From Hydractinia symbiolongicarpus (lineage: Eukaryota): 64,000 nt of DNA. How positions within the stretch are numbered: the first letter of the stretch is position 1; every line of letters starts with the position of its first letter. The stretch spans positions 12,132,720 through 12,196,719 of the forward strand of contig NC_079879.1 in the NCBI RefSeq assembly GCF_029227915.1, given 5' to 3'. Both the position numbers and the translations under genes were made by a program. Below the pieces are notes generated by a model. That model was given only the letters and a program-made list of their open reading frames with translations. It was not told the origin of the DNA and ran no database searches. Positions 1,395-64,000 of the stretch are shown here, in pieces.

Positions 1395-1497
1395 TCGAAG
1401 TGTCTGCTGCACCGGTACCGGAATCGTACATCGAAAAACTACTGAACCGGTACCGGATTTCTCCGGCTCACAGCTAGTGAACCGGCACAGGATTTTT
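1395..1497 (+). repeat. Left terminal inverted repeat of the MULE element
   Basis: Direct comparison with the reverse complement of 3177-3285. Confidence 0.75.
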
Positions 1498-2130: not shown

Positions 2131-2424
2131 AACTGTTTTTTTTTATATTTCTTTAAAGCAAGACTGCAAGTTTTCGCTCGCTTTGCGAGTAAATGAGTCT
2201 GGACAATTTTTAGAAGTAAAAGAATTTCACGCAGACCATACTCATGAATTAAAAAGGGTAGGCAATTTTAATTATCACTTGTCCGAGACTCATCTACCTT
2301 TATCAATAGCTATATAGTTTCATTGAATATATAACAAGATTAAAATCATAATATAAATTATTATTTGCATTTTTTTGTTACTTCTAGGAGCTTTACAGGC
2401 ATTTACCTAACCAGAGAAAGCTAA

Positions 2425-3151: not shown

Positions 3152-3176
3152 AATTTTACACAAAAAACTATGGAGT

Positions 3177-3285
3177 TTGCTGAAAAATCCTGTGCCGGTT
3201 CACTACCTGTGAGCCGGAGAAATCCGGTACTGGTTCAGTAGTTTTTCGATGTGCAATTCCGGTACCGGTGCAGCAGACACTTCGA
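3177..3285 (-). repeat. Right terminal inverted repeat of the MULE element
   Basis: Reverse complement matches 1395-1497. Confidence 0.75.
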
Positions 3286-13276: not shown

Positions 13277-13478
13277 ACAACTCATGTGATTGTGTCAACA
13301 GCAGAATATGCAAAATCCTCATTTCGATGTGAACGAGCAAGAACATACAACATCCCTGTGATTACTTCTGACTTTCTTAAAAATTGTTTGCTATCACAAA
13401 AGCTGGTTGATTTGGAGCCATATTTAGTCTTCAGAAAGTTGGAGAACAATGAATTGAAGACAGGAAAGATTGTAATTG
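13277..13478 (+). CDS. PARP4: PARP4 exon 2 (BRCT)
   Basis: TTHVIVSTAEYAKSSFRCERARTYNIPVITSDFLKNCLLSQKLVDLEPYLVFRKLENNELKTGKIVI. tttag acceptor and gtatgt donor. Confidence 0.85.
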
Positions 13479-13815
13479 GTATGTTGTGTGTTACACAATT
13501 TTTAGATTTTTTTTTTGTTTATCCTCGCAATGAGGCTCAGTATCGCATGTCAGCCAGAAGCGGAGACCACACAGTACAATTTGAGTTGAGCGGGATTCCA
13601 AGTATTTTATTTTTTACAAAGAAAGTTATTGCAAAACAAAAGATACAGGTTGCTAAGCCTACGGGAGCGCAATACCTTTCTATTTTTAAACTGCTCATCT
13701 ATTTTAATATTTGAGTTTGTAATATTCTTTAACCACTACTTTTAGTAATAAAATAAAAGTATTAAAAGTATTAAAATAAAAAATCTGTAGTAACAAAATT
13801 ATTTTGTTTTTTCAG

Positions 13816-23149: not shown

Positions 23150-23234
23150 GTTGTGGTTCTTCAAGCATACACAAATGAAAGCACTGAAGCTATTGAAGCC
23201 AAATACGTTTTTCCTATGGACAGTATGGCAGCAG
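23150..23234 (+). CDS. PARP4: PARP4 exon 17 (VIT)
   Basis: VVVLQAYTNESTEAIEAKYVFPMDSMAA, compared with human VIVFQTYTNKSHVPIEAKYIFPLDDKAA. Confidence 0.85.
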
Positions 23235-23340
23235 GTTTGTGTAATTAAAAAATTATTTTTAATGTATTACAATAACAATGTAGTGATTTTTATTTGCGTA
23301 TTAATTAATGGATGTTTTAACTTATTCTTTTATCCTGTAG

Positions 23341-23480
23341 TGTGTGGTTTCGAAGCGTTTATTAATGGTAAACACATAATCGGTCAGGTAAAAGAAAAAG
23401 AACAAGCACGAAAAGAGTACAAGGAAGCCATTAGCAAAAGTCATGGTGCTTATCTTATGGAAGAACAAGAAGAACAAGCT
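23341..23480 (+). CDS. PARP4: PARP4 exon 18 (VIT)
   Basis: VCGFEAFINGKHIIGQVKEKEQARKEYKEAISKSHGAYLMEEQEEQA. Confidence 0.9.
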
Positions 23481-23641
23481 GTAAGATAAACAAATCTATT
23501 AGGATTTATAACTTTTCTCCTTGTATTACGTAACACGGTTTTACTGAGGTTTTTATGTAGTCAAAATGGATGCATCTGAGATCAAAATTACGTACTGTAT
23601 TTTTAAAACTAAACACTCAAATTCATGATTGGTCTTTGCAG

Positions 23642-23806
23642 GATGTTTTCACTGTAAGTGTTGGGAATCTCCCACCGCATGCTGACGTGTTGATAAAAAT
23701 CACATACGTAGCAGAACTTCCGTTAGAAGGAGAACAAATCAGTTTCATACTGCCTGGATGTGTGGCACCATGGACCAAGAAAACTGCTTTAGCTACTCAA
23801 ATTCAA
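23642..23806 (+). CDS. PARP4: PARP4 exon 19 (VIT)
   Basis: DVFTVSVGNLPPHADVLIKITYVAELPLEGEQISFILPGCVAPWTKKTALATQIQ. Confidence 0.9.
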
Positions 23807-23894
23807 GTAAGATTTAGCTGGCGTTGTGTTTTATTTCAGATTTGGTAATGAACCTAAAAGAAGACCAAGCAATAATCTTTATACATATTTTTTA

Positions 23895-34539: not shown

Positions 34540-37500
34540 CCATCATTTTCGTTGATCGAGATAACAGCAAAACATAATACAGACTACATTAGGAGCAGGA
34601 ATGATATCACTTTCAAGAATCGATTTTTGTTTCAAAACTTGTTTGGTTTTATTAACATATCATCGGAACAACTCCTTTGTGATCACCTTGTAGCAAAAAT
34701 ACATAAAACAAGTACTTTTTTTAACTACTACAACATGACATTCTGTCATCCCGTTTCAAAATTTAAAGGATTTGTCCCATCACATACATCACTGTACAGT
34801 TACTGATTTGCGTTGGGCATAACTGTTGGGTAATAAAGAATGTTTGAACTTAACATGATCTGAGTTCTTTTTACTGTATTATAGCTTTGTACAATTTTCA
34901 GCCTGTCTACTTTGACAGACATATTTTCCGATACCTTATATATCCTGAACTGTTTCTTTCAGTAGTGAAATTTGTGAGCATCATAGAATATCTTGAAACG
35001 AACTCATTCCAAGTAAAAATCAATTTGATGCCATAGGTTTTCAAATGACGTCACACATGCAGAGAATGGGTCATTTTTACCATGTACAATAAATCTTTAA
35101 ATCTCACATGTACCAATATTTTGACCTAGCTTCTTGGTAGCTTTCTAGCCTGAATACGAAATAATTGTTTTCAACCAGTCAAACGACGTCAAAAACCTGT
35201 TTTTTTTCAAAAACATATCACACAGGATTAAACGGTACATCGATACGATACATTTTTTAACGATGACAAAGACAAAAGAAAAACAAAATATAACCGCCAC
35301 TTCAGGAGGAATAATATCATTTTCAGGAATGAATTGTTTCAAATCTTGCGTGATTTTCTTCCTAGTACTAGCATATCATCGTAACAACTCCTTTGTGATC
35401 ACCTGCTAGCAAAAATACATGACATAAGTACTTATATAACTACTACAACATCTCATCCTGTTTCAAAGTTTAAAGTAATTGCCCCCTCAAGGAATTGCAC
35501 TCATCCCCTGCAAAGTACAAATCTAAACAAAAACATCGCTAGTCGAAATGGTATTTAAACGTAACGTTTCTAGTAAATCACATACCTAACAAAAGGTATG
35601 CTTTGCGGCAGGCACTTATGACCCCTCTCCTAGGGTTAATATGTTGTTGTTTTTTAAGCCAGAGGAGGATTCCGAGAGGCCTGTTAACATCATAATTTGT
35701 GAATCATGTTAAAAATTTAATGTGCTAACTGGCTTTCCTGTCAGGTGCTTTTATGTGACATACATTTATTTAGGATTTGGTTTGGCAACTGAGTCCCCTC
35801 AAGTTGTATCGTCCGGCACTGTCAGCAAAGGCAACTATTTCAAAAGATTTATTCAAATTATGAATTCATCCTTCCTTCTCATTCAAATTTATGCCACACA
35901 ATTCTTTTTATCCCCTGCTCTAAAAGAATTTCGAACATTTTGATGAAGAATTTGGAAATACTTTCAATAAGAAGAGTAAAATTTATTTTATTTTTTTCAT
36001 TTTTTTAATTGAAGGTCTGGGTATAATGGCTTGTTTAATAGCTAAATTTTCATTACTGATTTGCATTGGGCATAATTGTTGGGTGATAAAGAATGTTTGA
36101 ACTTAGCAAGATCTCAGTTCTATTTACTGTATTATAGCTGGGCATTTTTCCGTCCGTCTAATGTTGACGAGATATTTTCCGATACCTTATACATCCTGAA
36201 CTGTTTGTTTCAGTAGTGAAGTTTTTGAGCATCATAGAATATCTTGAAACGAATTCATTCCAAGTAAAAGTCAATTTGATGCCCTAGGTTTTCAAATGAC
36301 GTTACACATGCAGAGAATGGGTCATTTTTTCCATGTACAATAAATCTTTATATCTCGCATATACCAATTTCCTGACCTAGCTTCTTAGTTGCTTTTTAGC
36401 CTGAATATAAAAAAATTGTTTTCAACGAGTGAACCGACGTCAATGACAACAGCGAGATCAAGCAAGAAGTCATATCTGCAGGAACCTTTTTTTGCTTTAA
36501 GATGTAAAAACCTGTTTTTTTTTCAAAAACATATCACACTGCATTAAACGGTACATCGATACGATACATTTTTTAACGATGACAAAGACAAAAGAAAAAC
36601 AAAATATAACCGCCACTTCAGGAGGAATAATATCATTTTCAGGAATGAATTGTTTCAAATCTTGCGTGATTTTCTTCCTAGTACTAGCATATCATCGGAA
36701 CAACTCCTTTGTGATCACCTGCTAGCAAAAATACATGACATAAGTACTTTAATAACTACTACAACATCGTGAATTTCTGTCATCCTGTTTCAAAGTTTAA
36801 AGTAATTGCCCCCTCAAGGAATTGCACTCATCCCCTGCAAACTACAAATCTAAACAAAAACGTCGCTAGTCGAAATGGTATTTAAACGTAACGTTTCTAG
36901 TAAATCGCATACCTAACAAAAGGTATGCTTTGCGGCAGGCACTGTATGACCCTTCTCCTAGGGTTAATATGTTGTTGTTTTTTAATATAGAGGAGGATTC
37001 CGAGAGGCCTGTTAACATCATAATTTGTGAACCATGTTAAAACTTTAATGTGCCAACTGGCTTTCCTGTCAGGTGTTTTCTATGTGACATGCATTTATTT
37101 GGGATTTTGTTTTGGAAATGCGGCCCCTCAAATTGCATCGTCCGGCACTGTCAGCAAGGGTAACTATTTTTGTTTTTATTCGAATTATGAATTCATCCTT
37201 CCTTCTCATTCAAATTTATGCCACACTTCTTTTTATCCACTGCTCTAAAAGATTTGCGAACATTTTGATGAAAAGTTTGGAAATACTTTGAACAAGAAGA
37301 GTAAAATTTTTTTTATTTTTTTCATTTTTTTTAATTGAAGGCCTGGGTAAAATGGCATGTTTAATAGCTAAATTTTCATTACTGATTTGCATTGGGCATA
37401 ATTGTTGGGTGATAAAGAATGTTTGAACTTAACAAGATCTCAGTTCTATTTACTGTATTATAGCTGGGCATTTTTCCGTCCGTCTAATGTTGAAGAGATA

Positions 37501-40500
37501 TTTTCCGATACCTTATACATCCTGAACTGTTTGTTTCAGTAGTGAAGTTTTTGAGCATCATAGAATATCTTGAAACGAATTCATTCCAAGTAAAAGTCAA
37601 TTTGATGCCCTAGGTTTTCAAATGACGTTACACATGCAGAGAATGGGTCATTTTTTCCATGTACAATAAATCTTTATATCTCGCATGTACCAATTTCCTG
37701 ACCTAGCTTCTTAGTTGCTTTTTAGCCTGAATATAAAAAAATTGTTTTCAACCAGTGAACCGACGTCAATGACAACAGCGAGATCAAGCAAGAAGTCATA
37801 TCTGCAAGAACCTTTTTTTGCTTTAAGATGTAAAAACCTGTTTTTTTTTCAAAAACATATCACACTGCATTAAACGGTACATCGATACGATACATTTTTT
37901 AACGATGACAAAGACAAAAGAAAAACAAAATATAACCGCCACTTCAGGAGGAATAATATCATTTTCAGGAATCAATTGTTTCAAATCTTGCGTGATTTTC
38001 TTCCTAGTACTAGCATATCATCGGAACAACTCCTTTGTGATCACCTGCTAGCAAAAATACATGACAAAAGTACTTTAATAACTACTACAACATCGTGAAT
38101 TTCTGTCATCCTGTTTCAAAGTTTAAAGTAATTGCCCCCTCAAGGAATTGCACTCATCCCCTGCAAAGTACAAATCTAAACAAAAACATCGCTAGTCGAA
38201 ATGGTATTTAAACGTAACGTTTCTAGTAAATCACATACCTAACAAAAGGTATGCTTGGCGGCAGGCACTGTATGACCCCTCTCCTAGGGTTAATATGTTG
38301 TTGTTTTTTAATCCAGAGGAGGATTCCGAGAGGCCTGTTAACATCATAATTTGTGAACCATGTTAAAACTTTAATGTGCCAACTGGCTTTCCTGTCAGGT
38401 GCTTTCTATGTGACATGCATTTATTTGGGATTTTGTTTTGGAAATGCGGCCCCTCAAATTGCATCGTCCGGCACTGTCAGGAAGGGTAACTATTTTTGTT
38501 TTTATTCAAATTATGAATTCATCCTTCCTTCTCATTCAAATTTATGCCACACTTCTTTTTATCCACTGCTCTGAAAGATTTGCGAACATTTTGATGAAAA
38601 GTTTGGAAATACTTTGAACAAGAAGAGTAAAATTTTTTTTATTTTTTTCATTTTTTTTAATTGAAGGCCTGGGTAAAATGGCATGTTTAATAGCTAAATT
38701 TTCATTACTGATTTGCATTGGGCATAATTGTTGGGTGATAAAGAATGTTTGAACTTAACAAGATCTCAGTTCTATTTACTGTATTATAGCTGGGCATTTT
38801 TCCGTCCGTCTAATGTTGAAGAGATATTTTCCGATACCTTATACATCCTGAACTGTTTGTTTAAGTAGTGAAGTTTTTGAGCATCATAGAATATCTTGAA
38901 ACGAATTCATTCCAAGTAAAAGTCAATTTGATGCCCTAGGTTTTCAAATGACGTTACACATGCAGAGAATGGGTCATTTTTTCCATGTACAATAAATCTT
39001 TATATCTCGCATGTACCAATTTCCTGACCTAGCTTCTTAGTTGCTTTTTAGCCTGAATATAAAAAAATTGTTTTCAACCAGTGAAACGACGTCAATGACA
39101 ACAGCGAGATCAAACAAGAAGTCATATCTGCAAGAACCTTTTTTTGCTTTAAGATGTAAAAACCTGTTTTTTTTCAAAAACATATCACACTGCATTAAAC
39201 GGTTCATCGGTACGATACATTTTTTAACGATGACAAAGACAAAAGAAAAACAAAATATAACCGCCACTTCAGGAGGAATAATATCATTTTCAGGAATGAA
39301 TTGTTTCAAATCTTGCGTGATTATTTTCTTAGTGCTAGCATATCATCGGAACAACTGCTTTGTGATCACCTGCTTGCAAAAATACATGAAATAAGTACTT
39401 ATATAACTACTACAACATCGTGAATTTCTGTCATCCCGTTTCAAAGTTTGAAGTAATTGTCCCCTCAAAGAATGGCACTCATCCCCTGCAAAGTACAAAT
39501 CTAAACAAAAACGTCGCTAGTCGAAATGGTATTTAAACGTAACGTTTCTAGTAAATCGCATACCTAACAAAAGGTATGCTTTGCGGCAGGCACTGTATGA
39601 CCCTTCTCCTAGGGTTAATATGTTGTTGTTTTTTAATATAGAGGAGGATTCCGAGAGGCCTGTTAACATCATAATTTGTGAACCATGTTAAAACTTTAAT
39701 GTGCCAACTGGCTTTCCTGTCAGGTGCTTTCTATGTGACATGCATTTATTTAGGATTTTGTTTTGGAAATGCGGCCCCTCAAATTGCATCGTCCGGCACT
39801 GTCAGCAAGGGTAACTATTTTTGTTTTTATTCGAATTATGAATTCATCCTTCCTTCTCATTCAAATTTATGCCACACTTCTTTTTATCCACTGCTCTAAA
39901 AGATTTGCGAACATTTTGATGAAAAGTTTGGAAATACTTTGAACAAGAAGAGTAAAATTTTTTTTATTTTTTTCATTTTTTTTAATTGAAGGCCTGGGTA
40001 AAATGGCATGTTTAATAGCTAAATTTTCATTACTGATTTGCATTGGGCATAATTGCTGGGTGATAAAGAATGTTTGAACTTAACAAGATCTCAGTTCTAT
40101 TTACTGTATTATAGCTGGGCATTTTTCCGTCCGTCTAATGTTGAAGAGATATTTTGCGATACCTTATACATCCTGAACTGTTTGTTTCAGTAGTGAAGTT
40201 TTTGAGCATCATAGAATATCTTGAAACGAATTCATTCCAATTAAAAGTCAATTTGATGCCCTAGGTTTTCAAATGACGTTACACATGCAGAGAATGGGTC
40301 ATTTTTTCCATGTACAATAAATCTTTATATCTCGCATGTACCAATTTCCTGACCTAGCTTCTTAGTTGCTTTTTAGCCTGAATATAAAAAAATTGTTTTC
40401 AACCAGTGAAACGAGGTCAATGACAACAGCGAGATCAAACAAGAAGTCATATCTGCAAGAACCTTTTTTTTGCTTTAAGATGTAAAAACCTGTTTTTTTT

Positions 40501-43500
40501 CAAAAACATATCACACTGCATTAAACGGTACATCGATACGATACATTTTTTAACGATGACAAAGACAAAAGAAAAACAAAATATAACCGCCACTTGAGGA
40601 GGAATAATATCATTTTCAGGAATGAATTGTTTCAAATCTTGCGTGATTATTTTCTTAGTGCTAGCATATCATCGGAACAACTGCTTTGTGATCACCTGCT
40701 TGCAAAAATACATGAAATAAGTACTTATATAACTACTACAACATCGTGAATTTCTGTCATCCCGTTTCAAAGTTTAAAGTAATTGCCCCCTCAAGGAATT
40801 GCACTCATCCCTTGCAAACTACAAATAAACGTAACGTTTCTAGTAAATCGCATACCTAACAAAAGGTATGCTTTGCGGCAGGCACTGTATGACCCTTCTC
40901 CTAGGGTTAATATGTTGTTGTTTTTTAATATAGAGGAGGATTCCGAGAGGCCTGTTAACATCATAATTTGTGAACCATGTTAAAACTTTAATGTGCCAAC
41001 TGGCTTTCCTGTCAGGTGTTTTCTATGTGACATGCATTTATTTGGGATTTTGTTTTGGAAATGCGGCCCCTCAAATTGCATCGTCCGGCACTGTCAGCAA
41101 GGGTAACTATTTTTGTTTTTATTCGAATTATGAATTCATCCTTCCTTCTCATTCAAATTTATGCCACACTTCTTTTTATCCACTGCTCTAAAAGATTTGC
41201 GAACATTTTGATGAAAAGTTTGGAAATACTTTGAACAAGAAGAGTAAAATTTTTTTTATTTTTTTCATTTTTTTTAATTGAAGGCCTGGGTAAAATGGCA
41301 TGTTTAATAGCTAAATTTTCATTACTGATTTGCATTGGGCATAATTGTTGGGTGATAAAGAATGTTTGAACTTAACAAGATCTCAGTTCTATTTACTGTA
41401 TATAGCTGGGCATTTTTCCGTCCGTCTAATGTTGAAGAGATATTTTCCGATACCTTATACATCCTGAACTGTTTGTTTCAGTAGTGAAGTTTTTGAGCAT
41501 CATAGAATATCTTGAAACGAATTCATTCCAAGTAAAAGTCAATTTGATGCCCTAGGTTTTCAAATGACGTTACACATGCAGAGAATGGGTCATTTTTTCC
41601 ATGTACAATAAATCTTTATATCTCGCATGTACCAATTTCCTGACCTAGCTTCTTAGTTGCTTTTTAGCCTGAATATAAAAAAATTGTTTTCAACCAGTGA
41701 AACGAGGTCAATGACAACAGCGAGATCAAACAAGAAGTCATATCTGCAAGAACCTTTTTTTGCTTTAAGATGTAAAAACCTGTTTTTTTTCAAAAACATA
41801 TCACACTGCATTAAACGGTACATCGATACGATACATTTTTTAACGATGACAAAGACAAAAGAAAAACAAAATATAACCGCCACTTGAGGAGGAATAATAT
41901 CATTTTCAGGAATGAATTGTTTCAAATCTTGCGTGATTATTTTCTTAGTGCTAGCATATCATCGGAACAACTGCTTTGTGATCACCTGCTTGCAAAAATA
42001 CATGAAATAAGTACTTATATAACTACTACAACATCGTGAATTTCTGTCATCCCGTTTCAAAGTTTAAAGTAATTGCCCCCTCAAGGAATTGCACTCATCC
42101 CTTGCAAACTACAAATCTAAACAAAAACGTCGCTAGTCGAAATGGTATTTAAACGTAACGTTTCTAGTAAATCACATACCTAACAAAAGGTATGCTTGGC
42201 GGCAAGCACTGTATGACCCCTCTCCTAGGGTTAATATGTTGTTGTTTTTTAATCCAGAGGAGGATTCCGAGAGGCCTGTTAACATCATAATTTGTGAACC
42301 ATGTTAAAACTTTAATGTGCCAACTGGCTTTCCTGTCAGGTGCTTTCTATGTGACATGCATTTATTTAGGATTTTGTTTTGGAAATGCGGCCCCTCAAAT
42401 TGCATCGTCCGGCACTGTCAGCAAGGGTAACTATTTTTGTTTTTATTCGAATTATGAATTCATCCTTCCTTCTCATTCAAATTTATGCCACACTTCTTTT
42501 TATCCACTGCTCTAAAAGATTTGCGAACATTTTGATGAAAAGTTTGGAAATACTTTGAACAAGAAGAGTAAAATTTTTTTTATTTTTTTCATTTTTTTTA
42601 ATTGAAGGCCTGGGTAAAATGGCATGTTTAATAGCTAAATTTTCATTACTGATTTGCATTGGGCATAATTGCTGGGTGATAAAGAATGTTTGAACTTAAC
42701 AAGATCTCAGTTCTATTTACTGTATTATAGCTGGGCATTTTTCCGTCCGTCTAATGTTGAAGAGATATTTTGCGATACCTTATACATCCTGAACTGTTTG
42801 TTTCAGTAGTGAAGTTTTTGAGCATCATAGAATATCTTGAAACGAATTCATTCCAATTAAAAGTCAATTTGATGCCCTAGGTTTTCAAATGACGTTACAC
42901 ATGCAGAGAATGGGTCATTTTTTCCATGTACAATAAATCTTTATATCTCGCATGTACCAATTTCCTGACCTAGCTTCTTAGTAGCTTTCCAGCCTGAATA
43001 TAAAAAAATTGTTTTCAACCAGTGAAACGACGTCAATGACAACAGTAAGATAAAACAAGAAGTCATATCTGCAAGAATCTTTTTTTGCTTTAAGATGTAA
43101 AAACCTGTTTTTTTCTTCAAAAACATATCACACAGGATTAAACGGTGCATTAGTGCGACACATTATTTAACGCTAACAAAGACCAAAGAAAAACAAAATA
43201 TAACCGCCACTTAGAGGAGAAATAATATCATTTTTAGGAATCAATTGTTTCAAATCTTGCGTGATTTTCTTCCTAGTGCTAGCATATCATCGGAACAACT
43301 CCTTTGTGATCACCTGCTAGCAAAAATACATGACATAAGTACTTATATAACTACTACAACATCGTGAATTTCTGTCATCCGGTTTCAAAGTTTAAAGTAA
43401 TTGCCCCCTCAAGGAATTGCACTCATCCCCTGCAAAGTACAATTCTAAACAAAAACGTCGCTAGTCGAAATGGTATTTAAACGTAACGTTTCTAGTAAAT

Positions 43501-46500
43501 CACATACCTAACAAAAGGTATGCTTGGCGGCAGGCACTGTATGACCCCTCTCCTAGGGTTCATGTGTTGTTGTTTTTTAATCCAGAGGAGGATTCCGAGA
43601 GGCCTGATAACATCATAATTTGTGAACCATGTTAAAACTTTAATGTGCCAACTGGCTTTCCTGTCAGGTGCTTTCTATGTGACATGCATTTATTTAGGAT
43701 TTTGTTTTGGAACTGTGGCCCCTCAAGTTGCATCGTCCGGCACTGTCAGCAAGGGTAACTATTTTAGTTTTTATTCGAATTGTGAATTCATCCTTCCTTC
43801 TCATTCAAATTTATGCCACACTTCTTTTTATCCCCTGCTCTAAAAGAATTGCGAACATTTTGATGAAAAGTTTGGAAATACTTTGAACAAGAAGAGTAAA
43901 ATTTATCTTATTTTTTTCATTTTTTTTAATTGAAGGTCTGGGTAAAATGGCATGTTTAATAGCTAAATTTTCATTACTGATTTGCATTGGGTATAATTGT
44001 TGGGTGATAAAGAATGTTTGAACTTAACAGGACGTCAGTTCTATTTACTGTATTATAGCTGGGCATTTTTCCGTCCGTTTAATGTTGAAGACATATTTTC
44101 CGGTACCTTATACATCCTGAACTGTTTGTTTCAGTAGTGAAGTTTTTGAGCATCATAGAATATCTTGAAACGAACTCATTCCAAGTAAAAGTCAATTTGA
44201 TGCCCTAGGTTTTCAAATGACGTTACACATGCAGAGAATGGGTCATTTTTTCCATGTACAATAAATCTTTATATCTCGCATGTACCAATTTCCTGACTTA
44301 GTTTCTTAGTAGCTTTCCAGCCTGAATATAAAAAAATTGTTTTCAACCAGTGAAACGACGTCAATGACAACAGTAAGATAAAACAAGAAGTCATATCTGC
44401 AAGAATCTTTTTTTGCTTTAAGATGTAAAAACCTGTTTTTTTCTTCAAAAACATATCACACAAGATTAAACGGTACATCAGTGCGATACATTATTTAACG
44501 CTGACAAAGACAAAAGAAAAACAAAATATAAATGCCACTTAGAGGAGAAATAATATCATTTTCAGGAATCAATTTTTGTTTCAAATTTTGCGTGATTTTA
44601 TTCCTAGTACTAGAATATCATCGGAACAATTCCTTTGTGACCATCTGCTAGCAAAAATACATGAAATAAGTACTTATATAACTACTACAACATCGTGACA
44701 TTCTGTCATCCCGTTTCAAAGTTTGAAGTAATTGTCCCCTCAAAGAATGGCACTCATCCCCTGCAAACTACAAATCTAAACAAAAACGTCGCTAGTCGAA
44801 ATGGTATTTAAACGTAACGTTTCTAGTAAATCACATACCTAACAAAAGGTATGCTTTGCGGCAGGCACTGTATGACCCTTCTCCTAGGGTTAATATGTTG
44901 TTGTTTTTTAATATAGAGGAGGATTCCGAGAGGCCTGTTAACATCATAATTTGTGAACCATGTTAAAACTTTAATGTGCCAACTGGCTTCTCTGTCAGGT
45001 GCTTTCTATGTGACATGCATTTATTTAGGATTTTGTTTTGGAAATGTGGCCCCTCAAATTGCATCGTCCGGCACTGTCAGCAAGGGTAACTATTTTAGAT
45101 TTTATTCGAATTATGAATTCATCCTTCCTTCTCATTCAAATTTATGCCACACTTCTTTTTATCCACTGCTCTAAAAGAATTGCGAACATTTTGATGAAAA
45201 GTTTGGAAATACTTTGAACAAGAAGAGTGAAATTTATTTTATTTTTTTAATTTTTTTTAATTGAAGGTCTGGGTAAAATGGCATGTTTAATAGCTAAATT
45301 TTCATTACCGATTTGCATTGGGCATAATTGTTGGGTGATAAAGAATGTTTGAACTTAACAGGATCTCAGTTCTATTTACTGTATTATAGCTGGGCATTTT
45401 TCCGTCCGTCTAATGTTGAAGACATATTTTCCGATACCTTATACATCCTGAACTGTTTGTTTCAGTAGTGAAGTTTTTGAGCATCATAGAATATCTTGAA
45501 ACGAACTCATTCCAAGTAAAAGTCAATTTGATGCCCTAGGTTTTCAATTGACGTTACACATGCAGAGAATGGGTCAATTTTTCCATGTACAATAAATCTT
45601 TATATCTCGCATGTACCAATTTCCTGACCTAGCTTCTTAGTAGCTTTCTAGTCTGAATATAAAAAAATTGTTTTCAACCAGTGAAACGACGTCAATGACA
45701 ACAGTAAGATAAAACAAGAAGTCATATCTGCAAGAATCTTTTTTTGCTTTATGATGTAAAAACCTGTTTTTTTCTTCAAAAACATATCACACAGGATTAA
45801 ACGGTACATTAGTGCGACACATTATTTAACGCTGACAAAGACAAAAGAAAAACAAAATATAACCGCCACTTAGAGGAGAAATAATATCATTTTCAGGAAT
45901 CAATTTTTGTTTCAAATTTTGCGTGATTTTATTCCTAGTACTAGAATATCATCGGAACAACTCCTTTGTGACCACCTGCTAGCAAAAATACATGAAATAA
46001 GTACTTATATAACTACTACAACATCGTGACATTCTGTCATCCCGTTTCAAAGTTTGAAGTAATTGTCCCCTCAAAGAATGACACTCATCCCCTGCAAAGT
46101 ACAAATCTAAACAAAAACGTCGCTAGTCGAAATGGTATTTAAACGTAACGTTTCTAGTAAATCACATACCTAACAAAAGGTATGCTTGGCGGCAGGCACT
46201 GTATGACCCCTCTCCTAGGGTTAATATGTTGTTGTTTTTTAATCCAGAGGAGGATTCCGAGAGGCCTGTTAACATCATAATTTGTGAACCATGTTAAAAC
46301 TTTAATGTGCCAACTGGCTTTTCTGTCAGGTGCTTTCTATGTGACATGCATTTATTTAGGATTTTGTTTTGGAAATGTGGCCCCTCAAATTGCATCGTCC
46401 GGCACTGTCAGCAAGGGTAACTATTTTAGATTTTATTCGAATTATGAATTCATCCTTCCTTCTCATTCAAATTTATGCCACACTTCTTTTTATCCACTGC

Positions 46501-49500
46501 TCTAAAAGAATTGCGAACATTTTGATGAAAAGTTTGGAAATAGTTTGAACAAGAAGAGTGAAATTTATTTTATTTTTTTAATTTTTTTTAATTGAAGGTC
46601 TGGGTAAAATGGCATGTTTAATAGCTAAATTTTCATTACCGATTTGCATTGGGCATAATTGTTGGGTGATAAAGAATGTTTGAACTTAACAGGATCTCAG
46701 TTCTATTTACTGTATTATAGCTGGGCATTTTTCCGTCCGTCTAATGTTGAAGACATATTTTCCGATACCTTATACATCCTGAACTGTTTGTTTCAGTAGT
46801 GAAGTTTTTGAGCATCATAGAATATCTTGAAACGAACTCATTCCAAGTAAAAGTCAATTTGATGCCCTAGGTTTTCAATTGACGTTACACATGCAGAGAA
46901 TGGGTCAATTTTTCCATGTACAATAAATCTCTATATCTCGCATGTACCAATTTCCTGACCTAGCTTCTTAGTAGCTTTCTAGCCTGAATATAAAAAAATT
47001 GTTTTCAACCAGTGAAACGACGTCAATGACAACAGTAAGATAAAACAAGAAGTCATATCTGCAAGAATCTTTTTTTGCTTTAAGATGTAAAAACCTGTTT
47101 TTTTCTTCAAAAACATATCACACAGGATTAAACGGTACATTAGTGCGACACATTATTTAACGCTGACAAAGACAAAAGAAAACAAAATATAACCGCTACT
47201 TAGAGGAGAAATAATATCATTTTCAGGAATCAATTTTTGTTTCAAATTTTGCGTGATTTTATTCCTAGTACTAGAATATCATCGGAACAACTCCTTTGTG
47301 ACCACCTGCTAGCAAAAATACATGACATAAGTATTTTTATAACTACTACAACATCGTGACATTCTGTCATCCCGTTTCAAAGTTTGAAGTAATTGTCCCC
47401 TTAAAGAATGACACTCATCCCCTGCAAAGTACAAATCTAAACAAAAACGTCGCTAGTCGAAATGGTATATAAACGTAACGTTTCTAGTAAATCACATACC
47501 TATCAAAAGGTATGCTTGGCGGCAGGCACTGTATGACCCCTCTCCTAGGGTTAATATGTTGTTGTTTTTTAATCCAGAGGAGGATTCCGAGAGGCCTGTT
47601 AACATCATAATTTGTGAACCATGTTAAAACTTTAATGTGCCAACTGGCTTTTCTGTCAGGTGCTTTCTATGTGACATGCATTTATTTAGGATTTTGTTTT
47701 GGAAATGTGGCCCCTCAAATTGCATCGTCCGGCACTGTCAGCAAGGGTAACTATTTTAGATTTTATTCGAATTATGAATTCATCCTTCCTTCTCATTCAA
47801 ATTTATGCCACACTTCTTTTTATCCACTGCTCTAAAAGAATTGCGAACTTTTTGATGAAAAGTTTGGAAATACTTTAAACAAGAAGAGTAAAATTTATTT
47901 TATTTTTTTAATTTTTTTTAATTGAAGGTCTGGGTAAAATGGCATGTTTAATAGCTATAATTTCATTACCGATTTGCATTGGGCATAATTGTTGGGTGAT
48001 AAAGAATGTTTGAACTTAACAGGATCTCAGTTCTATTTACTGTATTATAGCTGGGCATTTTTCCGTCCGTCTAATGTTGAAGACATATTTTCCGATACCT
48101 TATACATCCTGAACTGTTTGTTTCAGTAGTGAAGTTTTTGAGCATCATAGAATATCTTGAAACGAACTCATTCCAAGTAAAAGTCAATTTGATGCCCTAG
48201 GTTTTCAAATGACGTTACACGTGCAGAGAATGGGTCAATTTTTCCATGTACAATAAATCTTTATATCTCGCATGTACCAATTTCCTGACCTAGCTTCTTA
48301 GTAGCTTTCTAGCCTGAATATAAAAAAATTGTTTTCAACCATTGAAACGACGTCAATGACAACAGCGAGATAAAACAAGAAGTCATATCTGCAAGAATCT
48401 TTTTTTGTTTCAAGATGTAAAAACCTGTTTTTTATCAAAAACATATCACACAGGATTAAACGGTACATCAGTGCGATACATTATTTAACGCTGACAAAGA
48501 CAAAAGAAAAACAAAATATAACTGCCACTTAAAGGAGAAATAATATCATTTTCAGGAATCAATTTTTGTTTCAAATTTTGCGTGATTTTATTTCTAGTAC
48601 TAGAATATCATCGGATCAACTTCTTTGTGACCACCTGCTAGCAAAAATACATGAAATAAGTATTTTTATAACTACTACAACATCGTGACATTCTGTCATC
48701 CCGTTTCAAAGTTTGAAGTAATTGTCCCCTCAAAGAATGACACTCATCCCCTGCAAAGTACAAATCTGAACAAAAACGTCGCTAGTCGAAATGGTATTTA
48801 AACAAAACGTTTCTACTAAATCACATACCTAACAAAAGGTATGCTTGGCGGCAAGCACTGTATGACCCCTCTCCTAGGGTTCATGTGTTGTTGTTTTTTA
48901 ATCCAGCGGAGGATTCCGAGATGCCTGTTAACATCATAATTTGTGCACCATGTTAAAAATTTAATGTGCCAACTGGCTTACCTGTCAGGTGCTTTTATGT
49001 GACATACATTTATTTCGCATTTGGTTGTTTCGGAACTGTGGCCCCTCAAGTTGCATCGTCCGGCACTGTCAGCAAGGGTAACTATGTTAAAAGTTTTTAT
49101 TCGAATTATGAATTCATCATTCTTTCTCCTCATTCAATTTTATGCCACACTACTTTTTTACCCTAGCTCTAAAGGAATTGCCAATATTATGATGAAAAAT
49201 GTGGAAATTCTTTGAATAAGGAGAGTAATATTTACCTTCTTTTTTTAATTTTTTAAATTGAAAGTCTGAACCAAATTTTCATTACTGATTTGCATTGGGC
49301 AGAACTGTTGGGTGATAAAGAAAGTTTGAACTTAACAGGATCTCAGTTCTATTTACTGTGTTATAGCTTGGCATTTTTCCGTCCGTCTAATTTTGAAGAC
49401 ATATTTTCCGATACCTTATAAATCCTGAACTGTTTGTTTCAATAGTGAAATTTGTGAGCATCATAGAATATCTTTAAACTATCTCATTCCAAGTAAAAGT

Positions 49501-52500
49501 CAATTTGATGCCCTAGGTTTTCAAATGACGTTACACATGCAGAGAATGGGTCATTTTTTCCATATACAATAAATCTTTATATCTCGCATGTACCAATTTC
49601 CTGACCTAACTTCTTAGTAGCTTTCTAGCCTGAATATAAAAAAATTGTTTTCAACCAGTGGAACGACGTCAATGACAACAGCGAGATAAAACAAGAAGTC
49701 GTATCTGCAAGAATCTTTTTTTGCTTTAAGATGTAAAAACCTGTTTTTTTCATCAAAAACATATCACACAGCATTAAACGGTACATCGGTACGATAGATT
49801 TTTTAACGCTGACAAAGACAAAAGAAAAACAAAATATAACCGCCACTTAGAGGAGAAATAATATTACTTTCAGGAATCAATTGTTTCAAATCTTGCGTGA
49901 TTATTTTCCTAGTGCTAGCATATCATCGGAACAACTGCTTTGTGATCACCTGCTTGCAAAAATACATGAAATAAGTACTTATATAACTACTACAACATCG
50001 TGAATTTCTGTCATTCTGTTTCAAAATTTAAAGTAATTGCACCCTCAAGGAATTGCACTCATCCCCTGCAAAGTACAAATCTAAACAAAAACGTCGCTAG
50101 TCGAAGTGGTATTTAAACAAAACGTTTCTACTAAATCACATACCTAACAAAAGGTATGCTTGGCGGCAGGCACTGTATGACCCCTCTCCTAGGGTTAACG
50201 TGTTGTTCTTTTTTAATCCAGAGGAGTATTCCGAGAGGCCTGTTAACATCATAATTTGTGAACCATGTTAAAAATTTAATGTGCCAACTGGATTTCCTGT
50301 CATGTGCTTTTATGTGACATACACTTATTTAGGATTTGGTTTTGGAACTGTGGCCCCTCAAATTGCATCGGGCGGCACTCTCAGCATGGGTAACTATTTC
50401 AAAAGTTTTTATTCCAATTATGATTTGATCCTTCCTTCTCATTTATTTTTTTAATTTTTTTTAATTGAAGGTCTGGGTAAAATGGCATGTTTAATAGCTA
50501 AATTTTCATTATTGATTTGCATTGGGCATAATTGTTGGGTGATAAAGAAAGTTTGAACTTAACAGGATCTCAGTTCTATTTACTGTATTATAGCTGGGCA
50601 TTTTTCCGTCCGGCTAATGTTGAAGACATATTTTCCGATATCTTTTATATCCTGAACTATTTGTTTCAGTAGTGAAATTTTTGAGCATCATAGAATTTCT
50701 TGAAGCGAACTCATTCCAACTAAAAAGCAATTTGATGCCATAGGTTTTCCAATGACGTCACACATGCAGGGAATGGGTCGTTTTTCTGGTTTTGGAACTA
50801 TGGCCCCTCAAATTGCATCGTCCGGCACTCTCAGCATGGGTAACTATTTCAAAAGTTTTTATTCCAATTATGATTTGATCCTTCCTTCTCATTCAAATTT
50901 ATGCGACACTTCTTTTTATCCACTGCTCTAAAAGAATTTCGAACATTTTGATGAAAAATTTGGAAATACTTTGAATAAGAAGAGTAAAGTTTATTTTATT
51001 TTTTTCATTTTTTAATTGAAGGTCTGGGGACAATGGCATGTTTAATAGCTAAATTTTCATTATTGATTTGCATTGGGCATAATTGTTGGGTGATAAAGAA
51101 TGTTTAAACTTAACAGGATCCCAATTCTACTTACTGTATTATAGCTGGGCATTTTTCCACCCGTCTACTTTTGAAGACATATTTTCCGATACCTTATATA
51201 TCCTGAACTGTTTCTTTCAGTAGTGAAATTTTTGAGCATCATAGAATATCTTGAAACGAACTCATTTCAAGTAAAAATCAAATTGATGCCATAGGTTTTC
51301 CAATGACGTCACACATGTATGGAATGGGTCGTTTTTCTGGTTTTGGAACTATGGCCCCTCAAATTGCATCGTCCGGCACTGTCAGCAAGGGTAACTATTT
51401 TAGTTTTTTTTCGAATTATGAATTCATCCTTCCTTCTCATTCAAATTTATGCCACACTTCTTTTTATCCCCTGCTCTAAAAGAATTGCGAACATTTTGAT
51501 GAAAAGTTTGGAAATACTTTGAATAAGAAGAGTAAAGTTTATTTTATTTTTTTAATTTTTTTTAATTGAAGGTCTGGGTAAAATGGCATGTTTAATAGCT
51601 AAATTTTCATTATTGATTTGCATTGGGCATAATTGTTGGGTGATAAAGAAAGTTTGAACTTAACAGGATCTCAGTTCTATCTACTGTATTATAGCTGGGT
51701 ATTTTTCCGTCCGGCTAATGTTGAAGACATATTTTCCGATACCTTATATATCCTGAACTATTTGTTTCAGTAGTGAAATTTTTGAGCATCATAGAATTTC
51801 TTGAAGTGAACTCATTCCAACTAAAAAGCAATTTGATGCCATAGGTTTTCCAATGACGTCACACATGCAGGGAATGGGTCGTTTTTCTGGTTTTGGAACT
51901 ATGGCCCCTCAAATTGCATCGTTCGGCACTCTCAGCATGGGTAACTATTTCAAAAGTTTTTATTCCAATTATGATTTCATCCTTCCTTCTCATTCAAATT
52001 TATGCGACACTTCTTTTTATCCACTGCTCTAAAAGAATTGCGAACATTTTGATGAAAAGTTTGGAAATACTTTGAATAAGAAGAGTAAAGTTTATTTTAT
52101 TTTTTTCATTTTTTTAATTGAAGGTCTGGGGACAATGGCATGTTTAATAGCTAAATTTTTATTACTGATTTGCATTGGGCATAACTGTTGGGTGATAAAG
52201 AATGTTTAAACTTAACAGGATCTCAATTCTACTTACTGTATTATAGCTGGGCATTTTTCCGCCCGTCTACTTTTGAAGACATATTTTCCGATACCTTATA
52301 TATCCTGAACTGTTTCTTTCAGTAGTGAAATTTTTGAGCATCATAGAATATCTTGAAACGAACTCATTTCAAGTAAAAATCAATTTGATGCCATAGGTTT
52401 TCCAATGACGTCACACATGCATGGAATGGGTCGTTTTTCTGGGTTTGGAACTATGGCCCCTCAAATTGCATCGTCCGGCACTGTCAGCAAGGGTAACTAT

Positions 52501-53750
52501 TTTAGTTTTTTTTTCGAATTATGAATTCATCCTTCCTTCTCATTCAAATTTATGCCACACTTCTTTTTCTCCTCTGCTCTAAAAGAATTGCGAACATTTT
52601 GATGAAAAGTTTGGAAATACTTTGAACAAGAAGATTAAAATTTCTTTTATTTTTCTCATTTTCTTTTATTTGAAGGTCTTGGTAAAATGGCATGTTTAAT
52701 AGCTAAATTTTCATTACTGATTTGCATTGAGCATAATTGTTGGGTGATAAAGAATGTTTGAACTTAACAAGATCTCAGTTCTATTTACTGTATTATAGCT
52801 GGGCATTTTTCCGTCCGTCTAATGTTGAAGACATATTTTCCGATACCTTATACATCCTGAACTGTTTGTTTCAGTAGTGAAGTTTTTGAGCATCATAGAA
52901 TATCTTGAAACGAACTCATTCCAAGTAAAAGTCAATTTGATGCCCTAGATTTTCAAATGACGTTACACATGCAGAGAATGGGTCAATTTTTCCATGTACA
53001 ATAAATCTTTATATCTTGCATGTACCAATTTCCTGACCTAGCTTCTTAGTAGCTTTCTAGCCTGAGTATAAAAAAATTGTTTTCAACCAGTGAAACGACG
53101 TCAATGACAACTGCAAGATAAAACAAGAAGTCATATCTGCAAGAACTTTTTTTGTTTCAAGATGTAAAAACCTGTTTTTTATCAAAAACATATCACACAG
53201 CATTAAACGGTACATCGGTACGATACATTTTTTAACGCTGACAAAGACAAAAGAAAAACAAAATATAACCGCCACTTGAGGAGGAATAATATCATTTTCA
53301 GGAATCAATTGTTTCAAATCTTGCGTGATTTTATTTCAGTGCTAGCATATCATCGGAACAACTGCTTTGTGATCACTTGCTAGCAAAAATACATGAAATA
53401 AGTACTTATATAACTACTACAACATCGTGACATCCCGTTTCAAAGTTTGAAGTAATTGTCCCCTCAAAGAATGGCACTAATCCCCTGCGAAGTACAAATC
53501 TAAACAAAAACGTCGCTAGTCGAAATGGTATTTAAACAAAACGTTTCTACTAAATCACATACCTAACAAAAGGTATGCTTGGTGTAAAGTGCGGCAGGCA
53601 CTGTATGACCCCTTTTCTAGGGTTAATGTATTGGGGTTTTTTAATCCAGATGAGGATTCCGAGAGGCCTGTTAACATCATAATTTGTGAACCATGTTAAA
53701 AATTTAATTTGCCAACTGGCTTTCTTGTCAGTTGTTTTTTTTTCTCAGGA
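34540..53750. repeat. Large satellite-like tandem array with a unit of about 1.33 kb, about 14 near-full units plus truncated variants of about 550 bp, with higher-order structure
   Basis: The conserved 73-aa ORF MNHVKTLMCQ recurs at 37027, 38353, 39678, 40970, 42294, 43622, 44953, 46284 and 47614, a period of 1325-1331 bp. Diverged edge units sit at 34540-36000 and 48900-50300. Short units lie at about 50340, 50795, 51335, 51885 and 52440. Confidence 0.95.
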
Positions 53751-55500
53751 CACGCAATGATAGTAATTATTACTGAAGTGTACATCCGGTGTAAGTATTC
53801 ATGATAAGTAAATGAATAAATAAATAAATGAATAAATAAATTAATAAATGTGACATAACATTTCTTTAGTGTTTGGTTTTGGAACTAAGTCCCCTTAAGT
53901 TGCATCTTCCAGCTCTGTCGGCCAAGGTGGCTATGTTTAAAGTTTTTATTTGAAGTATGAGCTCATGCCTCCTCATCATTTATTGTCACACCACTTTTTA
54001 TCCACTACTCTGAGGGGAATGCCAATTTCTTTTTTATAAAAAAGAGGAAATTCGTTGAATAAAGGCACTAATATTTACCTTCATTTTCCTTTTTAAATGC
54101 TTGATCTGATAAGCCGCAGACCCTGTATGACCCCTGTGCCTGTTATAATTGTATTAATGTGTTTCTTTTAATCCAAAGGAGTGCTTCTATTCCAAGAGGC
54201 CTATGAACATAATTTTTTATGAATCATGTTCAAATTTTAATGTAACAAATGGTTTTCCTATCAGATGCTATTATGTGACATAACACCTATTTAGGATTTG
54301 GTTTTTGAGCTGTGTCCTCTCAAATTGGACCTTCCAGCTCTGTCGGCCAAGGTAACTGTGTTAAAAGTTTATATTTGAATTATGAATTCATTCCTTCTTC
54401 TTTTCATTCATTTATATCCCACACTATTTTTATCCACTGCTCTAAAAAGAATGCCAAGATTTGATAAAAAATTTAGAAATTCTTGGAATAAGAAAAGTGA
54501 TATTTACCTTGTTGTTGTTTTTTTCATTTTTTAATTGAAGGTCTAATAATAATGGTATGTTTACTAGCGCAATTTCGATTGGGCATAAACATTTGGTGAG
54601 AAAGGATGTTTTAACTTAACAGGATATCAGTTCTCTTCTCTGTATTATTTTGATAATACATTTTCTCATACCTACTTTATTCTTAACTATTTATGCTTTA
54701 GTAACTATGTTGAAAGTATTTCTTTAAATTATAAATTCATCCCTTTCTCATTTTATTCATTTACATGCCACACCACTTTTTATTCACTTCTATAGAAGGA
54801 ATACCTACATGTTTATGGAAAATTTTATATTATTTAGGGACTATGTTTTTTGTTTTAGCTTTTAAAAAAACTGTAGAAAAGCCCTTCTCTCCTACATTTC
54901 AGAAAGGAATCATAGATATTTTACCTAACATTGAGTTATATATTCCTGAGTTATGAACGGTCTATTTACACAGAATCTTCTTTTTCAAAAAAATATTTGC
55001 TTCCAGAACTGAAATCGACTTAAATATCCTTTAGTCATATTTTTGGAATGTTAACTCTTCATCGTGAAAAAATTCCAAATTAATTATCCTATTCCAGTAG
55101 GTCTGTTAACAGAATTTTCCCTCAATTTTCTTCTCAATTAATAAATAGCGAAATATTATTACGAACATTGTCCGTCGATAACAATAGCCTGAAATAAACT
55201 CGCTTGTTCATGACATGATAATATCTTAATTATTCAATGACAATGACTGGACAGATAGGTGGTAATATATTTTTAAAGAGTTTTCCCTTTACCATTTTTA
55301 AACATTAGGATTCTGAATTTAACAACTGATTTTCATATTAGGTGCTTGTATGTGACATAACTTTTATTTAGTATTTGATTTTGAAACTTCATCCTCCAAA
55401 GTAGCATTCTCTGCGTCTGACCACCAAGGCAACTATGTTAAAAGGATTATTTAAATTATAAATTCATCCCTTCCTCGCTTTATTCATGCCACACCACTTT
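53750..55500. repeat. Highly diverged relatives of the array unit at the 3' edge of the array
   Basis: Segments at about 53870, 54290 and 55370 keep the motif gtgacata...tatttaggatttggtttt...gaac...cctc.aa.ttg.a.c.tcc.gc.ctgtc.gcca.gg.aactat.ttaaaag at only about 70% identity. Confidence 0.6.
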
Positions 55501-61711: not shown

Positions 61712-61942
61712 CTAAATGTTTTCTATTTCGTCCTGGAGTAAAATAACTTGCTTCGCGACGCCATCATAGAATAATATCTTACTTGCTTCGCATGACAACT
61801 TTAACACTGCATTCAGCTTATCAATCAAATGGTTAAAGTCATCAATCACAAACACGTGTTCTTTGTCTGTTGCAATTTCTACAAGTTCCTCTTCGTCAAT
61901 CTTATGCCCAATTCCCATAGAAATGATGGTGACTTTGTTATT
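61712..61942 (-). CDS. Terminal exon (vWA C-terminus plus stop) of a thrombospondin-type-1-repeat / vWA-domain protein gene
   Basis: Minus-strand translation: NNKVTIISMGIGHKIDEEELVEIATDKEHVFVIDDFNHLIDKLNAVLKLSCEASKILFYDGVAKQVILLQDEIENI*. ctgttcag acceptor on the minus strand. TAG stop at 61712-61714. Confidence 0.75.
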   Translation of the reverse strand, partial: NNKVTIISMGIGHKIDEEELVEIATDKEHVFVIDDFNHLIDKLNAVLKLSCEASKILFYDGVAKQVILLQDEIENI

Positions 61943-62422
61943 CTGAACAGTATAATACAAAGAATTAAAAACATCAATCTTTAAACTAATCTCACTTCAT
62001 TCTAAAGAAAAATGTAAAGATAAAATCGAAATCGAAAATCTATAGATAGACAATGTTTCCCCTCTTACATTGGAAAATATTAATAACAAAGGAATAGGAT
62101 TCTTATATGGTAAAAAACAATCCAACAGATGCAAAATTCCTTTTCATTTATAGGAACAAAAAAATTTCCTAGAATAAAATGCTACCATGAAGACACAAAC
62201 GCTTTTGGAAGAGTATTATCTCCTAGATTCAATATGCCTCGCCAAGAATATACTTAAGCATTTTTACATAGGGACGGAACCAAAAACCTAAGAATAAGGT
62301 TTGATTGTCTAGATTCAGAAAAATAGAACAGAAACGGTAAAAAATACGTTAAAATTATTTTTTATATCATAAAATAGTAAATACGTCACATACTATAAAG
62401 GATCAAAGTTCATAATATTTAC

Positions 62423-62583
62423 CTTTAGGCCTTGTGTTGCAATTGTCATGGGAGCAGATGAGCTACTGCTTTTGCCATCCGTAATAACAATCAAGACTTT
62501 GGGAACGCCCACCCGGTTTCCACATGTGTCGCAAAAGAATTCTTTTTCTGCCATAAGCAAAGCTTTGTCTGTTCGGGTACCAC
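62423..62583 (-). CDS. vWA-domain exon of the TSR/vWA gene
   Basis: GTRTDKALLMAEKEFFCDTCGNRVGVPKVLIVITDGKSSSSSAPMTIATQGLK, the classic vWA G.T.TG.AL...PKVLIVITDG motif. ttttcag acceptor and gtaaat donor on the minus strand. The phase is continuous with neighbouring exons. Confidence 0.8.
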
Positions 62584-62745
62584 CTGAAAATGTAAATTTT
62601 TAATGAGCTTTTGCAGGACAGAATCTCATTCATAGCACTCTTTTCTTCTTACTTTACCATCAACCCTGAATGCGTGGTTCTGGACTTTTTGATATAAGAG
62701 ACTAAGGACCTTCACATTCTATTTAAAGCTTTTAAGTTCTCCTAC

Positions 62746-62994
62746 CGTACGAGTATTTACTGGACAATATTTTCTGTTCAAGCACGTAAGGATTCCAATA
62801 TGCTCTATTTTTCATTGTGAAATCAAGATGAGCTCCCCACGAAAAATGAATCATGCCGAAATGAACACCATCCTGACCAACTTTGAATTCCTTGGTCAAA
62901 TCCACAACAAATTGTTTGACTTTTCTGTAATTTTTAGAAGTCACGCTTGTTGAAGCATCTGTGATGACACCGATCTCTAATTTTTTCTGGCAAA
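62746..62994 (-). CDS. vWA-domain N-terminal exon of the TSR/vWA gene
   Basis: VCQKKLEIGVITDASTSVTSKNYRKVKQFVVDLTKEFKVGQDGVHFGMIHFSWGAHLDFTMKNRAYWNPYVLEQKILSSKYSY. cttttag acceptor and gtagga donor on the minus strand. Confidence 0.7.
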
Positions 62995-63372
62995 CTAAAA
63001 GATAATTTTTTAATGTTGTAACTAAAGGATAATTGTTATTCCTATTATTATATTTTGCACATGATAGCATCTTCAGTTCCAAATGGTAATGTTATTAATG
63101 AAGGTGCTGCAAAGAGAGTCTTAGTACAGTTAAAACTCCCATTTAAAAGCAATATTTGTTGTGATATGCTTGTCACTGAAGAGTGCTGTCGATCGCTAGC
63201 ATTATTTTCGTATTTTATGTATGAGAGCTAGCAATGGTAAAATTGAGTTTCGTATTTTTCATTTTGGAAAAAAAGAACCGCGAAAATTTCTCTTTGCAAT
63301 AATTAATCCCTTAAGATTATCATCAAGCCCATTACTGAGTGTGCACTTTGTTTTGTTATCAAATAAACTTAC

Positions 63373-63564
63373 CAGGTTCACATCTTTCAGTATTACATTC
63401 ACTGCTATCTGATCCCTCTCCTTCACAATACGATCCATCATACGTTGGTTTCGGATTTGTACAAGTGCGCATGCGCTCTTTTAACCCTCCACCACATTTT
63501 CTACTGCAAGCAGACCAACTTGACCATTCACTCCAGCCACCTGGTACTGCTTGTTTCTCTTTTG
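63373..63564 (-). CDS. Thrombospondin type-1 repeat (TSR) exon; the gene continues upstream beyond the window end
   Basis: AKEKQAVPGGWSEWSSWSACSRKCGGGLKERMRTCTNPKPTYDGSYCEGEGSDSSECNTERCEP, the canonical TSR pattern WSxWSxWSxCSxxCGGG...R.R.C plus 6 Cys. ttttag acceptor and gtaagt donor on the minus strand. Confidence 0.8.
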
Positions 63565-64000
63565 CTAAAAGTAAACTTTATTACATCACATATGGACAGA
63601 TTATTATGACCCTAGTCTGTTCCACTCATTTACGATTTTAGCGCTCAGTGCTTGCGTTAAAAATTTCAAATTCAATTTGCTTCAAACAATTTGTATAAGA
63701 AAAAAAAATTGCACATGCCTTACACTATCAACATGTCATAAGATCAAATGGATTTTTCAAATAAAAATTGCTAAGGAGTTGATTCGCGAAATGACACAGA
63801 ATGAGATTAAAGGGAATGGATTAATGAGGTAGAATATAAGGCTCAATATAAACCACTGGAGAGTTCAAAAAGTCGAAAGAGAGGTTTATACTGGAATTAT
63901 TAACGACGAGTGAACAGCCATTTAACCCCTAGTTGTGTAATGAAGCCCACTGTCTTGTTTAATAAAAAGACGACAGGTTCTGGTAACAGGGTTAGGCTGA

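Follow-up and report, generated by a model that had tools for sequence, protein, structure and literature searches.

A block of ~550-bp units within a 1.33-kb tandem array of Hydractinia symbiolongicarpus probably derives from a single internal deletion

A tandem array of 1.33-kb units lies at 34549-54824 on the plus strand of a 64,000-nt stretch of the Hydractinia symbiolongicarpus genome (assembly GCF_029227915.1, contig NC_079879.1, positions 12,132,720 to 12,196,719 of the forward strand; this whole stretch is referred to as the window, and all positions are given within it). The array spans ~20 kb, is arranged head to tail, is non-coding, and has degenerate copies at its edges. In addition to ~12 long units of 1292-1331 bp each, it contains a block of short units of ~550 bp (U12-U15 in the numbering of Table 1) that lack a segment of ~780 bp; the portion found in both kinds of unit is called the common part. 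We conclude, with a probability of roughly 80%, that the short units descend from one internal 776-bp deletion in a long unit that was then re-amplified locally, and that the original unit of the array was already 1.33 kb long. The original prediction, made from the letters of the window, had set two histories side by side, the insertion of an element into a 550-bp ancestral satellite or a secondary deletion subfamily. The second is borne out here by a junction common to all short units, by the presence of the segment in the oldest relics at the array edges and by the position of the short units within long-unit diversity, and the polarity given by relics and trees is opposite to the first.

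All four short units lack the same 776 bp (consensus 551-1326), and the long units carry 776-786 bp between the same two junction points, confirming that a long unit equals a short unit plus one block of ~780 bp. The end sequences quoted in the prediction are present: in long units the segment begins ATTTTTTCCATGTACAATAAATC and finishes CATGCATTTATTTAGGATTT(T/G)GTTTT, and the short units connect ...GAATGGGTC with GTTTTTCTGGTTTTGGAAC. The short block itself was correctly recognized but its size was not, as five units had been counted from ~50340 to ~52440 and there are four units with four junctions, the supposed fifth being the common part of the long unit U16. One junction, in which GGGTC is followed by GTTTTTC and then by TGGTTTTGGAAC, is observed in 4/4 short units, and the four copies are alike save for point substitutions (GGGTC followed by GTTTTTCTGG(T/G)TTTGGAAC). 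The join of ...GACGTCACACATGCAGGGAATGGGTC to GTTTTTCTGGTTTTGGAACTATGGCCCC... is exact at 50779/50780 and 51880/51881 and carries 1-3 substitutions at 51330/51331 and 52432/52433. As the junction is the same in every short unit, it points to one event followed by copying, not to independent deletions, which breakpoints differing between copies had been expected to favor; the breakpoint is the same in 4/4.

The first 8 nt past GGGTC in the short units (GTTTTTCT) correspond to the first bases of the segment (ATTTTTTC) plus one T of the right flank. The lost piece is best placed at the consensus positions given above, since GTTTTTC agrees with the start of the segment and the TGGTTTTGGAAC after it with the right flank. 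No microhomology and no duplicated target site were found at the short-unit junctions. A microhomology-mediated deletion was considered and rejected, as T-runs are present at both boundaries (ATTTTTT... and ...GGATTTT) but do not predict the observed junction without a second event. An imperfect similarity of ~20 nt (GGGTCATTTTTTCCATGT versus AGGTGCTTTCTATGTG), located ~45 bp upstream of the 3' boundary, does not predict it either, and the joint is therefore treated as blunt.

The polarity of the change is given by the older copies within the array. The most diverged relics, at both array edges (21-25% diverged), already hold the 780-bp segment, and in the right relic a single unbroken alignment (75%) runs from the 3' end of the segment across into the 5' end of the common part. 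These relics are ~22% from every unit, and the short units are 5.4-9.2% from the long units U02-U10, which form a recently homogenized core, with U01 and U11 as older variants (the common parts of core units differ by 0-4.1%, and U11 is 8.9-10.9% from the core). The full-length form is thus older than the short form, as judged with outgroups taken entirely from this array. When the tree is rooted on the relic, long U11 branches first and the short units are placed between U11 and the remaining long units, so that they fall inside long-unit diversity.

The boundary sequences point the same way. To the right of the short junction stands TGGTTTTGGAAC, the form that the long 3' boundary takes in the relic (where it reads GGATTTGGTTTT) and in U10/U11, whereas the homogenized core has GGATTTTGTTTT. 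By this comparison TGGTTTTGGAAC matches the ancestral form, and the TTTTGTTTTGGAAA of the core units is derived. The degenerate U00, an old unit of long type with its 5' junction (GGGTC followed by ATTTTTACCATGTAC) at 35072/35073, carries single-nucleotide polymorphisms (SNPs) that otherwise mark short units, GACGTCAC, GCCATAGG and TATATATCC, which implies that this sequence lineage formerly possessed the segment. The short block, flanked by long units on either side, is a small one that grew locally inside the array, which also contains other internal deletions, of 103, 62, 34, 34 and 20 bp in units and of ~900 bp in relics.

Several observations weigh against a derived origin of the short units. 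They keep ancestral states no longer found in the core long units (an AAA indel, GGAACT and GACGTCAC), and their mutual divergence exceeds that of the core long units, which, taken alone, could suggest old age. They are also not a clean clade in the tree for the 3' half, so that the junction must, on this tree, either have been spread between subtypes by exchange or seem scattered through blurring by conversion. Only U00 (~10% diverged), and none of the 22%-diverged relics, keeps the segment's 5' boundary. Finally, the evidence comes from this one locus, with outgroups all drawn from the same array, where gene conversion can blur ages, and this leaves an uncertainty of ~20%.

The comparison of divergence within the two classes, which had been put forward as a way to order the events, was run and yielded a mean of 5.5% among the short units versus 2.3% among the core long units, but reading these numbers naively as an order of events misleads. 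The short units look older in this comparison because the core long units have recently been homogenized; divergence is 10-22% for the relics and for the older long units U00 and U11, and the long class taken together is much deeper. Such within-class comparisons can misorder events whenever one class has recently been homogenized.

Within the block, the short units fall into two subtypes separated by ~6.5%, A (U12 and U14, 3.5% apart) and B (U13 and U15, 2.0% apart). Adjacent A and B units make up a dimer of ~1.1 kb present in two copies, a higher-order repeat whose copies are 97.7% identical over 1105 bp, compared to ~92-93% for neighboring monomers. The heads of U14 and U16 are identical in columns 0-100 (0/92), the first ~100 bp of U16 being part of the dimer duplication and the remainder of core-long type. 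Taken together, the identity of the dimer copies and of these two heads indicates that the latest step was a tandem duplication of the A-B dimer that reached into U16. U12 is chimeric, with a B-like head, a 103-bp gap and an A-like body, and is only 450 bp long because of this further deletion. Mosaicism is also observed among the long units, where the nearest neighbor of a unit differs between its common part and its 780-bp part (37114-43708); U02/U05 and U04/U06 are identical in the 544-bp common part, yet their 780-bp parts differ by 2.7% and 5.9%, respectively. Such discordance between the parts of a unit is the signature of in-register exchange and gene conversion. Patterns of this kind, and concerted evolution, are generally attributed to unequal crossing-over, gene conversion and slippage (PMC8122249), and higher-order repeats form by joint amplification of adjacent monomers (PMC5615363).

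It had also been suggested that the 780-bp segment could be an unrecognized mobile element, and nothing supports this identity. In a search for terminal inverted repeats, the two 80-nt segment ends shared at best a 7-nt inverted match (E = 0.26), and none ran end to end in a self-comparison, which likewise revealed no internal or terminal repeat structure. Direct matches between the segment ends do not exceed 7 nt and no open reading frame (ORF) with homologues is present, as would be sought for a long terminal repeat (LTR) element or a solo LTR. No target-site duplication was found; with a slash marking each boundary, the left flank reads TTTTTTC/C..., the right ...GGATT/TGGTTTT and the short junction C/T, with no shared bases. 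The segment ends CATGTAC... and ...TTTAGGATT on the plus strand do not give the TC...CTRR of a Helitron or Helentron on either strand. With regard to a short interspersed nuclear element (SINE) or other retroposon, the segment has no tRNA-, 5S- or 7SL-like head (ARAGORN, 0; Rfam, 0 even at E<=1) and no poly-A tail; the only A-run adjoining it (A6, minus strand) is kept in the short units and therefore lies outside the missing piece.

A profile search returned no further copy of the segment in the other 44 kb of the window. Its GC content (35.4%) is similar to that of the common part (33.1%) and of the flanks (32.3% and 33.3%). Pattern scans of metagenome contigs gave no match to the array repeat, searches of a protein collection with the satellite ORFs gave 0 matches, and four 16-18-mers of the repeat had 0 matches in the text of papers. 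Two further candidates were rejected: an ancient internal duplication, as blastn at word size 7 between the 780-bp block and the common part gave nothing better than E ~1, and a larger carrier element, as no direct or inverted repeat is common to the two flanks of the array. There is a very slim chance that the block is an unrecognized non-autonomous element, or an excision unit that leaves a footprint, which entered the progenitor before amplification and whose near-precise loss the short units record; in that case the deletion boundaries would be element boundaries and not random breaks. Genome annotations should, on present evidence, not list the 780-bp block among the transposable elements.

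Other accounts of the two unit sizes must be weighed against a single deletion. An ancestral 550-bp satellite might have taken up the 780 bp, as a mobile element or other DNA, with the composite then amplified and the short units surviving as the ancestral form. The long unit does amount to a short unit with a single contiguous block added, and this block is not homologous to the common part; the retained ancestral states and deeper mutual divergence of the short units would fit, and composite satellites of such a kind exist, for example bovine satellite 1.711b. We nevertheless regard this as unlikely, as the block is already in the oldest relics at both edges, one of which keeps its junction with the common part, and the short units are just 5-9% from the long units compared to ~22% for the relics. 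The segment, moreover, lacks terminal inverted repeats, LTR-like direct repeats, a target-site duplication, an ORF, poly-A, Helitron ends and RNA-family or tRNA similarity, has no other copy in the window, and is missing from a block of units that is internal and recently duplicated.

If ectopic recombination or gene conversion had imported the short block from a 550-bp array at another genomic site, this would account for the private substitutions near the short junction GGGTCGTTTTTCTGGTTTTGG (CCAATG, CAGGG, GGGTCG), and for the fact that the short units are 5.4-9.2% from the core long units but 10-13% from the neighboring long U11. This seems quite improbable, given that most short-unit marker SNPs are common to U00, U01 or U11 of the same array, that the U14 head is identical to the head of the flanking long U16, and that the block edges are in register with the array. 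As tandem arrays are prone to assembly errors, the short units could also be an artefact of mis-joined reads in a repetitive region. This is hardly credible for four units that differ at 2-7% of sites in the order A-B-A-B and carry private SNPs absent from every long unit, and a collapse would not make a reproducible new junction four times. A single deletion followed by local copying remains the preferred explanation.

The array was delimited using blastn with a reference unit and nhmmer profiles of both unit parts, and matches across the whole window were confined to the interval given above, with nhmmer E-values per unit (1e-185 to 1e-293) far past chance. Units were cut in register at GGAA[AC]TG.GGCCCCTCAAATTGCATCG, and unit spacings of 1291-1331 bp and 550-552 bp show a regular head-to-tail arrangement. 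Tandem Repeats Finder did not pick up the array because its longest period was 500. A coding or RNA gene within the unit was considered and rejected: array ORFs do not exceed 73 aa except for one of 117 aa in a single unit, none has homologues in protein searches, ARAGORN found 0 tRNA genes, and no Rfam family reached its gathering score in the array, or E<=1 on the full unit. The coordinates are collected in Table 1.

Table 1. Units, relics and junctions of the tandem array, in window coordinates
Feature	Position	Strand	Remarks
Long-unit starts	35787, 37114, 38440, 39765, 41057, 42381, 43709, 45040, 46371, 47701, 49032, 52447	+	
Left-edge units	34549..35786	+	Relic piece of the 780-bp segment, then U00
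Left relic piece	34549-34782	+	780-bp segment positions 245-486, 79% identity (array begins inside the segment)
U00, long-type, degenerate	within 34549..35786	+	Common part 266-542, then 780-bp segment with 62-bp gap
U01-U11, eleven long units	35787..50343	+	1292-1331 bp
780-bp segment, example copy in U08	45584..46369	+	nhmmer insert profile positions 1-782
Short-unit block U12-U15	50344..52446	+	450, 551, 550, 552 bp
U12	50344-50793	+	450 bp, short
U13	50794-51344	+	551 bp, short
U14	51345-51894	+	550 bp, short
U15	51895-52446	+	552 bp, short
Deletion junction 1, GGGTC followed by GTTTTTCTGG	50775..50789	+	Recurs at 51326-51340, 51876-51890, 52428-52442
U12 secondary 103-bp deletion (consensus 97-199)	50440..50445	+	Also switch point from B-like head to A-like body
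A+B dimer (~1.1 kb), two copies, higher-order repeat	50442-51544 and 51543-52647	+	
U16, last long unit	52447..53758	+	Truncated near position 765 of the 780-bp segment
Right-edge relics	53881..54824	+	Profile matches, four pieces
Right relic, common 1-218	53881-54093	+	
Right relic, 780-bp segment positions 596-782	54107-54304	+	
Right relic, common 2-348	54307-54648	+	
Right relic, common 47-164	54701-54824	+	

Further features were noted in and around the array. Each short unit contains, at 50749-50760 and the same site in the others, an intact CCAAT directly overlapping a perfect palindromic TGACGTCA that resembles a cAMP response element (CRE); at this site the long units have CAAAT with TGACGTTA, and U00 has CAAAT with TGACGTCA. 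An (ATAA)n microsatellite of 11.5 copies (53804-53849) lies between the truncated U16 and the relic copies. The window as a whole is AT-rich eukaryotic DNA with a GC content of 29-35%, and its genes (PARP4-like, ZSWIM3-like and TSP1/VWA) are those of an animal by their content. Upstream of the array, a PARP4-like (vault PARP) gene on the plus strand is represented by exon-like ORFs with BRCT (13286-13714) and VIT (23151-23845, as 23151-23489 and 23561-23845) domains, the VIT exon having its closest database match, 91% identical, in marine metagenome contigs. A TSP1/VWA gene on the minus strand (61715-63577; TSP1 at 63362-63577, VWA pieces at 62735-63091 and 62396-62599) is convergent with it, and the array lies between the recognizable parts of both. 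At 1395-3285, ORFs for ZSWIM3_N (1795-2130) and a ZSWIM1-3 RNaseH-like domain (2735-3151) lie between the arms of a 234-bp inverted repeat (1395-1628 and 3058-3285, 92% identity), an arrangement suggestive of a transposon-derived copy bearing long terminal inverted repeats. A 63-bp tandem repeat (2.5 copies, 82% matches) is present at 29591-29745, ~5 kb upstream of the array. Short dispersed repeat pairs (10896-11019/33149-33273, 12702-12769/59779-59846 and 6510-6695/12861-13035; 68-186 bp, 77-90% identity, two pairs inverted) may be SINE-like elements or resemble miniature inverted-repeat transposable elements (MITEs), and are unrelated to the array.

The remark that the array records stepwise satellite evolution was correct in general terms, and we infer the following order. 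The 1.33-kb unit would have been amplified first, its relics being those now 21-25% diverged, and the U00 and U11 lineages would then have split off (~10%). A single deletion of 776 bp would have followed in one unit, possibly through end-joining repair or replication slippage, as a blunt joint would fit. The shortened unit would next have been copied in place by unequal exchange, with the A and B subtypes splitting (~6.5%), after which the A-B dimer was presumably duplicated (2.3%) and U12 lost its 103 bp. In parallel, U02-U10 would have been homogenized (0-4%) by the same process of unequal crossing-over and gene conversion.

Satellite DNA and transposable elements form a network, in which satellite-like repeats can be carried by or derived from mobile elements such as MITEs or the internal arrays of Helitrons and Helentrons (PMC5139131). 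The array described here shares with such repeats the general idea that pieces of a unit may derive from transposable elements, but differs in that the segment and the array flanks have no terminal repeats, target-site duplications, hairpin or CTRR ends, or coding remnants. Bovine satellite 1.711b is a composite of the 1.711a unit and an inserted segment that were amplified together. As in that system, two unit sizes differ here by one contiguous block unrelated to the remainder of the unit; the bovine unit measures ~2.6 kb (PMC7644632). The polarity, however, is reversed in the present array, where the block is in the oldest copies and the short form, nested within the long, is derived.

The closest parallel is with satellite and macrosatellite arrays under concerted evolution (PMC8122249, PMC5615363). 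The present array differs from these in combining a long unit (1.33 kb) with a short array (~20 kb), and in lying between two protein-coding genes and not in evident heterochromatin. It would be a true satellite if the repeat were abundant across the genome. It offers a small, clean example of how a tandem array diversifies, through one deletion, re-amplification as a dimer, homogenization of the core and decay of the edges, and it matters little beyond annotation. The finding is one of ordinary satellite turnover and routine concerted evolution. Like those arrays, it has head-to-tail non-coding units, a homogenized core and diverged edge relics, together with a variant monomer with one shared breakpoint, a 1.1-kb dimer of adjacent variants and mosaic units, and with its deletion-derived monomer variant, dimeric higher-order repeat, homogenized core and decayed edges it matches the textbook pattern of satellite or macrosatellite-like turnover.

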